Below, in pieces: positions 31,532-32,647 of a stretch of 64,000 nt of DNA. The translations under genes and the position numbers were made by a program. This stretch comes from Escherichia coli (lineage in GTDB: Bacteria > Pseudomonadota > Gammaproteobacteria > Enterobacterales > Enterobacteriaceae). The notes below the pieces were generated by a model. It had not been told where the DNA came from. It made no database searches and saw nothing but the letters and a program-made list of their open reading frames with translations. The stretch lies in assembly GCF_030384885.1 (NCBI RefSeq), contig NZ_CP128613.1; one strand, given 5' to 3'. Every line of letters begins with the position of its first letter. Position 1 is the first letter of the stretch.

Positions 31532-32647
31532 TTAATGACGATCAGGAAGGTCTGGCGTTTTGGCGGCTGATGGTAAAGGTGACCTCACAGGGGAACGAGG
31601 CCTGTTGTCCAGTAGTTCTTCGTTACTAATTTTGGGCGGAATTTCATTTTTTACAAAAAGTTTTAGAATCTTGCGTGCCATACGATGGATACTTTTATCT
31701 TCACTTAATAATGCCGGTATCAACACATCATTCAGGTCATTTTCATTAGGTTTCATGAAAATTTGAAAGTGCAATAACATATTTGTAAAAAATAAGAATA
31801 GACTCTGAAAGTGAGGTATTTCTTTGTTTGATAAAAGCGATAAAAAGCAGATGCAAACTTCAGGTAGTACTTGTTTGTTAGAACCTAATGAATCCATGAG
31901 GTTTTGTAATAACTCATCTTTTAATGGGCTATCCTTTATGTCGTAGATGGCGGTGATTAAGTTTGGGTTTTTATTCGCGAACCACCTGTGGACCTGCGGC
32001 TTATTCCATAGTCGGGGGAGTATGACAAAATTACCACGAGAGATAAAGTTCAGTACGAATAAATCAAACTGACGTAAGTAATCTGCAGCGGTATGATGCT
32101 CAGGAGGAAGAGGTTCAATATGTGGAGTATGAGACCTTTTGATGGGGACGCCGGGGCTGATCATTGGAAATTGTTCAATAAAGTCATTAAGAAACAGAAA
32201 GAGCACACGCTCGACGCCGGTCTGAAAGGCCCGACCCATAGTGACAGGCTTTGGGTCGGGAGCACAATAAATATTAATTTCCCCATCGTGGCGAAAATTA
32301 TCTAAATAAATAGGGCTTAAATTTATTACTACCTGAAATTCAATGTTTTCTTTATGTCTTCCATTCTTAACAGGATACGTGAGTTTAAATTGAACCTTTT
32401 CATTGTATAGCGTGTCGTTATCTCGGAAAGTTGTCCTCTGTATATAAGATAGGTTATCAAGATTATTGAATATCTTTTTGGTGTTTGAATTGATGTTTAA
32501 AGACGTACGCCACTCCTCATCACATATTATAATGCTGAGCGCATCAATAAAATCCTTCAAAACTTCTTTTACCTGAGGTGCAATATTGCGAACGGGAAAA
32601 TCATCAGGAAGTGAGATGAAATTGCTGATGCTTACTGGCGTAACCAT
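31532..32647 (-). CDS. yneK: Uncharacterised protein YneK (371 aa)
   Basis: Long ORF with no recognisable motifs, visibly AT-rich; synteny between sotB and yneJ. Confidence 0.75.
   Translation of the reverse strand: MVTPVSISNFISLPDDFPVRNIAPQVKEVLKDFIDALSIIICDEEWRTSLNINSNTKKIFNNLDNLSYIQRTTFRDNDTLYNEKVQFKLTYPVKNGRHKENIEFQVVINLSPIYLDNFRHDGEINIYCAPDPKPVTMGRAFQTGVERVLFLFLNDFIEQFPMISPGVPIKRSHTPHIEPLPPEHHTAADYLRQFDLFVLNFISRGNFVILPRLWNKPQVHRWFANKNPNLITAIYDIKDSPLKDELLQNLMDSLGSNKQVLPEVCICFLSLLSNKEIPHFQSLFLFFTNMLLHFQIFMKPNENDLNDVLIPALLSEDKSIHRMARKILKLFVKNEIPPKISNEELLDNRPRSPVRSPLPSAAKTPDLPDRH

Follow-up and report, generated by a model that had tools for sequence, protein, structure and literature searches.

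The yneK gene of Escherichia coli K-12 (b1527, UniProt P76150) has been described in the literature as uncharacterised, devoid of recognised domains and limited to E. coli and Shigella (PMC11540155, PMC12757027). The copy considered here lies in a stretch of 64,000 nucleotides of E. coli DNA (contig NZ_CP128613.1, assembly GCF_030384885.1; the whole stretch is referred to as the window), where an earlier note, made from the letters alone, had pointed to it as an AT-rich, likely horizontally acquired and nucleoid-silenced orphan gene of unknown function. Like its K-12 counterpart, it resides between ptrR (yneJ) and ydeA, encodes a protein of 371 amino acids and matches the NCBIfam equivalog model NF033404 (YneK) over its full length (790.2 bits with a cutoff of 40, E 2e-238, residues 1-371 of 371). 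The RefSeq annotation of this open reading frame (ORF) is also yneK, and both the identity of the gene and its lack of an assigned function agree with what the note had proposed. On the other hand, the window copy is only 84% identical to the K-12 gene at the protein level and 85% at the DNA level, belongs to a rare allele class and is devoid of the slip-prone T6 tract at nucleotide 377.

Two broader groups of genes offer further comparison. The AT-rich ORFans of enterobacteria resemble yneK in low GC content, poor codon adaptation, narrow clade, dispensability and patchy retention; however, yneK is long (371 amino acids), constrained (ratio of nonsynonymous to synonymous divergence, dN/dS, of about 0.15), has no phage or insertion sequence (IS) context and has resided at one chromosomal site since before the split of E. 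coli and E. albertii. The xenogeneic islands silenced by H-NS, such as Salmonella SPI, E. coli bgl and LEE, are likewise AT-rich insertions relative to sister genera. In contrast to them, yneK is a single gene without mobility or regulatory partners, and the high-affinity H-NS motif is not enriched in it.

In our opinion, yneK is probably a real, genus-restricted orphan accessory gene, residing on an old insertion, constrained yet dispensable and present in E. coli as two haplotypes. According to this interpretation, about 1.27 kb of AT-rich DNA would have entered the last codons of ptrR before the lineages of E. coli and E. albertii separated. It would have brought a 371-codon ORF along with a leader of this ORF and a stem-loop on its 3' side, and provided PtrR with a new C-terminal tail. 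Since then, yneK would have been kept by purifying selection and lost independently by many lineages, and two old haplotypes would still be recombining in E. coli, the window containing an intact copy of the rare one. The gene itself was known before; the mapped insertion, the estimates of selection, the rare allele, a mosaic allele and the extent of pseudogenisation are added here. These additions are useful, if unsurprising to a specialist; no mechanism emerges from them, and the view of the mar locus is unchanged.

Constraint on the coding frame and repeated loss of yneK

Selection was estimated by the Nei-Gojobori method, with the window copy compared to those of K-12 and E. albertii. The dN/dS ratio was 0.14 between the window and K-12 (67.7 nonsynonymous and 96.3 synonymous differences) and 0.16 when either E. 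coli copy was set against that of E. albertii; inside each allele class it ranged from 0.09 to 0.18, and the O157:H7 copy compared to K-12 gave 0.10. When 53-codon windows were considered, the ratio never exceeded 0.44, thus remaining below 1 throughout the gene. Constraint is distributed unevenly, with dN/dS of 0.06 in codons 1-215 and 0.24 in codons 216-371; the C-terminal third is the most diverged (dN 0.15 vs 0.03), and residues 146-215 are almost invariant (ERVLFLFLNDFIEQFP...HTPHIEPL..HH.AADYLRQFDL..NFISRGNF). Neighbouring genes are under tighter constraint (dN/dS of 0.01-0.06). The frame is open in both E. coli and E. albertii, across a synonymous divergence (dS) of about 1.2-1.3. Thus, yneK is a protein-coding gene under purifying selection, which argues that it encodes a working protein, useful in some settings.

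Despite this constraint, the gene proved to be dispensable and was lost independently in many lineages. An inactivated yneK, as judged by length, annotation or sequence, was found in 23 of 40 evenly spaced genomes (58%); seven of the ten length-changed copies in this sample were checked, and all seven were annotated as frameshifted. It is probable that the gene is broken or deleted in more than half of sequenced E. coli. The most frequent lesion among the frameshifted copies examined (five of seven) was a T6-to-T5 deletion at nucleotide 377, resulting in a stop at codon 153, with extra 1-nucleotide deletions at positions 849, 885 and 996 in some of the T5 copies. An exact match to the T5 60-mer was found in 767 genomes, and the frameshift is therefore present in at least that many, vs 2,167 genomes with the exact K-12 T6 61-mer. 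Two O157:H7 strains bear a GAA-to-TAA change at codon 263 (E263*), whereas in ST131 (phylogroup B2) only a remnant is left, consisting of about 100 nucleotides of the 5' end and about 20 nucleotides of the 3' end; short remnants of this kind occur in approximately 1,150 genomes. Further lesions include IS1 insertions in yneK and a deletion extending into ydeA, and a Shigella sonnei form of YneK, shortened by 113 residues at the N-terminus, stands at the head of a cluster with 3,818 member sequences. Under laboratory conditions, butanol-evolved strains lost yneK-ydeA-marC by deletion (bioRxiv 10.1101/143792), and yneK was dispensable in a laboratory deletion (PMC11187965). Tools for pangenome analysis and genome-wide association studies will split such a gene into several 'genes', and this may explain weak links such as that with bovine cell adherence, which was reported in an association study of adherence and lost its significance after correction (PMC11540155).

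One explanation of these losses would be that yneK is a decaying or spurious ORF, and that the window copy is intact by chance. Apart from the proportion of inactivated copies in the 40-genome sample, the accumulation of secondary frameshifts in copies already broken, the tolerance of laboratory deletions and the failure in validation of a yneK hit from a CAST host-factor screen (PMC12757027) would all be in line with it. However, a neutral AT-rich ORF of 1,116 nucleotides would not remain open across dS of 1.2-1.3, and both the dN/dS values of 0.14-0.16, which are not close to 1, and the near invariance of residues 146-215 argue against decay. The low ratio found even for the O157:H7 copy indicates that the inactivations are recent. 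The window copy itself has no features of a pseudogene, as its frame is intact and its dN/dS is not near 1. We therefore regard the decay of yneK as an unlikely explanation, and this K-12 y-gene, devoid of an assigned function, domain or homolog, appears as a constrained gene and not as annotation noise. As sequenced strains offer intact and mosaic as well as broken alleles, it is also a tractable natural experiment on the keeping and loss of orphan genes.

Origin of the AT-rich block in ptrR

The composition of yneK was compared with that of 42 further long ORFs in the window and found to differ. Its GC content is 0.384 vs a mean of 0.499 (sd 0.034, z about -3.4) and its GC3 is 0.376 vs 0.512 (sd 0.061, z -2.2), with GC1 and GC2 also low; sliding GC content falls to 0.35-0.40 solely at positions ~31400-32800 and returns to at least 0.50 on either flank. 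Codon usage of yneK is the most atypical among 41 ORFs (a value similar to the codon adaptation index of 0.619 vs 0.728, sd 0.035, z -3.1), and classic rare codons account for 8.4% of its codons vs 3.7% in other genes. The gene is therefore AT-richer than its neighbours, as the earlier note had claimed, and differs from the other ORFs of the window in both GC3 and codon adaptation. Its position beside the mar/sotB locus was also given correctly, since ydeA (sotB), marC and marRAB lie on one side of it, and ptrR, sad and glsB on the other.

The inserted block was delimited by the GC trough and by alignment of the ptrR-ydeA interval from the window, K-12, E. albertii, E. fergusonii, Salmonella and ST131 (Table 1). 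Its parts are a new tail at the 3' end of ptrR, a 77-nucleotide spacer with the leader, yneK itself and the larger part of the 3' hairpin. The outgroups are homologous up to the PtrR codons '...LEAFIxLL' and again from 'AGAGAGAT..AATGCGATC', which in E. fergusonii consists of the end and stop region of ptrR and the conserved region upstream of ydeA; the insertion can thus be mapped to about 15 bp within the ptrR end. As E. albertii, but neither E. fergusonii nor Salmonella, shares these last codons of ptrR, this tail was supplied by the inserted DNA. PtrR has 293 amino acids in the window, 288 in E. fergusonii and 290 in Salmonella; among E. coli strains, ptrR is annotated as 876 or 882 nucleotides, the inserted C-terminal tail being polymorphic in length. 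In genomes without yneK, the gap between ptrR and ydeA amounts to 91 nucleotides (E. fergusonii) and 115 nucleotides (Salmonella), and in Citrobacter sedlakii the site is occupied by an unrelated gene of the PhzF family. The absence of yneK from this site in all three indicates that DNA was added to an ancestral ptrR-ydeA junction. The E. albertii gene, on the other hand, is found at the same site and is diverged (dS of 1.2-1.3) similarly to the flanking genes (0.5-1.2), hence the insertion is old and predates the split of E. coli and E. albertii.

A separate observation concerns E. fergusonii, whose divergence from E. coli between glsB and marR (dS of 1.3-2.0) is nearly as high as that of Salmonella, E. 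albertii being nearer (0.5-1.2). Such a distance is unexpected if E. fergusonii is closer genome-wide, and suggests replacement of the locus in one lineage. The lack of yneK in E. fergusonii fits an ancestral state and a replaced locus alike.

Searches for relatives of YneK led back to the same genus. Among 5.8 billion protein clusters, 22 matches were found, all of them Escherichia/Shigella YneK or its fragments; an exhaustive HMMER scan of 1.84 billion representatives gave 44 matches, all representing YneK of E. coli, Shigella or E. albertii, with fragments and frameshifted forms included. A single scan of genome contigs found only E. albertii and a metagenome-assembled genome labelled as Caldithrix; the yneK coding sequence in the latter is 100% identical to that of K-12 and was dismissed as E. 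coli contamination. No phage match was detected by tblastn against 50,697 phage records, the best PHROG match (42 residues, E 0.008) is weak and non-significant, and six matches in a plasmid collection represent E. coli yneK on mislabelled chromosomes or chromosome fragments, not true plasmid carriage. The Pfam and PADLOC searches gave no family even at E<=10, and the PDB profile search gave zero matches. A published survey found the same restricted range (PMC12757027). A paper on a nucleoid protein that turned up under the name yneK concerns a Bacillus subtilis gene sharing this name. As far as sequence searches can tell, yneK is a true orphan, with homologs confined to Escherichia (including Shigella) across the cluster, representative, phage and plasmid searches. 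The zero Pfam matches are consistent with the lack of recognisable catalytic motifs that had been noticed at the outset, and clear homology to a known enzyme, which would have spoken against an orphan, was found in none of the Pfam, PADLOC and PDB searches.

Neither a tRNA gene nor an integrase, IS or other mobility gene was found near the block, its ends bear no convincing terminal repeats, direct or inverted (short repeats at chance level only), and the protein, phage and plasmid searches revealed no donor. Horizontal acquisition, proposed in the earlier note, is thus a reasonable interpretation of composition and insertion taken together; the atypical composition and the insertion relative to E. 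fergusonii and Salmonella speak for it, but neither a donor nor a mobility signature accompanies them, and the event would be old and not recent.

It could be supposed further that yneK is an island gene acquired horizontally and carried as H-NS-silenced cargo without a role in the host. H-NS preferentially binds AT-rich acquired DNA in enterobacteria, and a gene with 38% GC in a 50% GC environment, with atypical codons, inserted relative to Salmonella and E. fergusonii, would be a suitable target. H-NS silencing of yneK is plausible on these grounds. However, dN/dS of 0.09-0.18 at all time depths implies that the protein has been expressed and selected, and the age of the insertion, together with the lack of mobility genes, a tRNA site and a donor, is not what such cargo would predict. 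Moreover, the high-affinity H-NS motif TCGATAAATT, with up to two mismatches allowed, occurs three times in 1.1 kb vs 1.7 times per kb across the window, so it is not enriched, and no E. coli paper tying yneK to H-NS was found in the literature searched. That yneK is silenced cargo and nothing else appears doubtful to us, though possible.

Two divergent alleles of yneK

Alleles were surveyed in 5,426 complete E. coli genomes, those at least 99% identical to the window copy being referred to as W. Intact W-type genes occur in about 20 of these genomes (~0.4%), the yneK of E. coli 2013C-4282, located between the same neighbours, being 100% identical to that of the window. Full-length copies of the other type, K, which are 96-100% identical to K-12, occur in about 4,260 genomes. 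The nucleotide identity between the window copy and common K-type alleles is 84.9-85.3%, vs a background of 96.7% between the window and K-12 (sd 1.6 over 77 bins of 500 bp); in the three bins covering yneK, this identity falls to 82.0, 88.6 and 90.4%. As shown in Table 1, the divergence extends to both neighbours. Inside the regulator gene ptrR, dS switches abruptly at position 33300 (codon ~100), in a manner resembling a recombination breakpoint.

Table 1. Positions of the features of the yneK locus in the window, and synonymous divergence of its genes from K-12
Feature	Position	Strand	Description
yneK coding sequence	31532..32647	(-)	W-type allele, intact; ATG start, 371 amino acids, no internal stops; dS window vs K-12 0.59
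Inserted AT-rich block, ~1.27 kb	31490..32757	(-)	Ends +/- ~15 bp; six-way alignment of the ptrR-ydeA interval and GC trough
Last ~10 codons of ptrR	32725..32757	(-)	Common to E. albertii; not in E. fergusonii or Salmonella
Ancestral ydeA upstream region	31385..31476	(-)	Right boundary of the insertion; from 'AATGCGATC' to the ydeA start codon it can be aligned with both E. fergusonii and Salmonella
Putative stem-loop of the 5' untranslated region	32652..32694	(-)	In the 77-nucleotide spacer; Shine-Dalgarno GGGG (32653-32656) pairs with upstream GCUCUAUAUAGU; inverted repeat
3' stem-loop	31479..31518	(-)	CUCUCUGACG / CGUCAGAGAG, 14-nucleotide loop, no U-tract; inverted repeat 14 nucleotides past the yneK stop
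Block of elevated divergence	30194..33300		ydeA, yneK and ptrR codons ~100-293; vs K-12 and ST131
ptrR codons 101-293			dS window vs K-12 0.46
ptrR codons 1-100			dS window vs K-12 0.055
ydeA			dS window vs K-12 0.15-0.32
sad, glsB			dS window vs K-12 0.16
marC, marR			dS window vs K-12 0.06-0.10

To allow for a faster neutral rate in the AT-rich gene, dS was normalised by the divergence from E. albertii. The ratio of within-species to between-species dS was 0.44 for yneK, with values of 0.09-0.29 in the genes on its flanks (chi-square 28, p 1e-7). W and K are split by 164 diagnostic sites (14.7%) in the ten alleles sampled, and E. albertii has states in common with both. Strain 2017.09.02CC carries a clean mosaic, being of W type in much of the 5' third and of K type in the remainder, and in the ST131 remnant the 5' end is mostly K-like and the 3' flank is of W type. 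The diagnostic sites, the mosaic allele and the mixed remnant point to haplotypes which are old (about half of the distance between E. coli and E. albertii) and recombine within the species.

An alternative source of the W haplotype would be introgression from another Escherichia lineage by homologous recombination. The sharp breakpoint in ptrR, where dS rises about codon 100 (Table 1), and the mosaic of W and K are what such an event could leave behind, and the W/K divergence, about half of that between E. coli and E. albertii, would also be compatible with it. Furthermore, the window protein bears the NCBI label 'MULTISPECIES [Escherichia]', and a near-identical W protein (cluster member P0069) is listed under 'Escherichia sp. 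MOD1-EC5189'. This isolate, the one 'Escherichia sp.' carrier examined, was considered as a representative of a donor clade and rejected, since the flanks of its gene are 95-100% identical to the window (mostly at least 98%) and 95-99% identical to K-12, as in ordinary E. coli. Besides E. albertii, no third full-length cluster from another species was found in the protein searches, and the W-type 3' flank of the B2 remnant implies that W sequence is older and more widespread in E. coli than would be guessed from the 20 intact copies. We consider introgression somewhat less likely than not, and it deserves to be taken seriously alongside an old polymorphism within E. coli.

The divergence of the two haplotypes might also be ascribed to balancing or diversifying selection acting on YneK as a defence, immunity or host-interaction factor, e.g. 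a type III effector. The excess of synonymous divergence within the species over that between species does peak at yneK, and presence/absence polymorphism, the strongly diverged C-terminal third and the occurrence of the gene in both E. coli and E. albertii could be read in this way. So could the N-terminus, rich in Ser, Thr, Asn, Pro and Ile, and the Pro-rich C-terminal tail (NRPRSPVRSPLPSAAKTPDLPDRH) with its PxxPxR and S/T-P motifs. However, dN/dS exceeds 1 in no window of the gene, and the frequency of W (~20/5,426) is not intermediate, as would be expected for a balanced polymorphism. Nothing points to a component of defence, as PADLOC returned zero families and yneK is a lone gene among neighbours of housekeeping type, with no partner, chaperone or secretion genes nearby. 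As for an effector, the nonsense allele E263* is found in O157:H7, whose type III system is active, and yneK is kept intact in K-12, which is devoid of a working type III secretion system. This explanation seems to us very unlikely.

A bolder proposal, which we find rather unlikely, is that YneK founds a family without a relative in 15 billion sequences, possibly with a new fold, and that the haplotypes and the losses in pathogens reflect niche-specific selection. If this were true, YneK could be, for example, a commensal colonisation factor or the product of an 'anti-virulence' gene, whose loss helps extraintestinal pathogenic E. coli of phylogroup B2, O157:H7 and Shigella sonnei.

Expression signals, protein features and further observations

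All three genes, ptrR, yneK and ydeA, have the same orientation. No terminator-like site was detected by a terminator scan of the region, no sigma-70-like site by a promoter scan of the 77-nucleotide spacer between ptrR and yneK, and no known RNA family by an Rfam scan of positions 28000-36500. A sigma-54-like sequence, TGATAG-N4-TTGCA, was noticed in the spacer by eye; it is imperfect and not conserved in E. albertii, and we do not claim it as a promoter. In vitro genomic SELEX experiments placed NtrC and RpoH peaks within the yneJ/yneK spacer (PMC8743547, PMC5493296). Transcription of yneK may depend on read-through from ptrR or start at a weak conditional promoter within the spacer.

As judged from the alignment, E. 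coli and E. albertii appear to be more alike in the spacer than in the coding sequence (72%). Its predicted stem-loop (Table 1) has a folding energy of -26.9 kcal/mol, with z of -2.1 in the window and -2.4 in K-12, and in E. albertii the register is shifted and the Shine-Dalgarno sequence is still paired. Translation may be held back by this hairpin covering the Shine-Dalgarno sequence, and slowed by poor codon adaptation. The lack of a promoter signal, the leader hairpin and the codon adaptation, taken together, suggest that expression of yneK would be low and conditional. The stem-loop beyond the stop codon (-20.4 kcal/mol) has z of -3.4 in the window, -5.5 in K-12 and -4.4 in E. albertii; its stems are kept in the three lineages and its loops vary. 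Although not called by the terminator scan, it is probably a 3' end or a stabilising element of the yneK transcript.

YneK is a protein of 43 kDa with pI of 6.8. Its maximal hydropathy over 19 residues is 1.32, and sequence analysis revealed neither a segment of transmembrane strength nor a signal peptide. Structure prediction by AlphaFold2, suggested in the earlier note as a check, gave low confidence (predicted local distance difference test, pLDDT, of 44-50), and the fold is not usable. Two runs at this confidence predicted the same secondary structure, i.e. helices at residues 24-61, long antiparallel strands at 63-128 and a long helix at 135-159, followed by an unstructured His-rich linker and helices at 187-347, HEAT-like by eye. 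A division of YneK into an N-terminal alpha+beta domain, an invariant His-rich core, a HEAT-like region of helices towards the C-terminus and a disordered tail rich in Pro can be put forward tentatively. The likeness to helix-grip/SRPBCC-StART-like and other alpha+beta ligand-binding domains is structural only. Our working model, in which our confidence is low, is that YneK acts in the cytoplasm as a soluble binding protein or adaptor, with no enzymatic role. Residues H173, H176, H184, H185, C265 and C267 are invariant.

Several of these results weigh against the interpretation that yneK is an accessory gene with a role, expressed and maintained in the way outlined above. The loss of the gene, probably in more than half of the genomes, could mean that yneK is now nearly neutral, and the W allele, being rare, looks more like an old relic or an introgression than like one of two actively balanced alleles. 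The leader hairpin has modest z values (-2.1 to -2.4), and clean compensatory changes were not seen in its stems; co-transcription with ptrR is deduced from the absence of predicted signals. Finally, the invariant His and Cys residues could equally mark the metal site of an unrecognised enzyme.

Some observations concern other parts of the window and related strains. A diguanylate cyclase ORF beside yneG (36583-38001, plus strand) encodes 472 amino acids in the window, E. albertii and E. fergusonii, and its K-12 counterpart, dgcF, encodes 315; about 500 bp at positions 36517-37016 are absent from K-12, and K-12 dgcF looks 5'-truncated. The alignment with K-12 ends at position 16117, no more than 14 nucleotides from the left boundary of the cryptic prophage Qin (K-12 position 1,632,277). 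The window strain appears to be without Qin at this point, positions 1-16116 being unmatched in the K-12 interval compared. An intact ORF of 1,822 amino acids (50765-56233, plus strand) was found, by mapping of alignment coordinates, at the place of the K-12 pseudogene yneO (b4696). Past hipA, positions 58127-64000 are unaligned to the K-12 interval compared, which contains yneL and the ydeQRST fimbrial genes. Two ORFs in this part (60228-61139 and 61817-63211) have GC contents of 0.38 and 0.43 and GC3 of 0.32-0.33, their third positions being more AT-skewed than those of yneK. The region downstream of marB, occupied by eamA and ydeE in E. coli, contains genes for a 6-phospho-beta-glucosidase and for a sugar porin of LamB type in E. 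albertii; a 6-phospho-beta-glucosidase gene also adjoins marB in one E. coli isolate from a dog.

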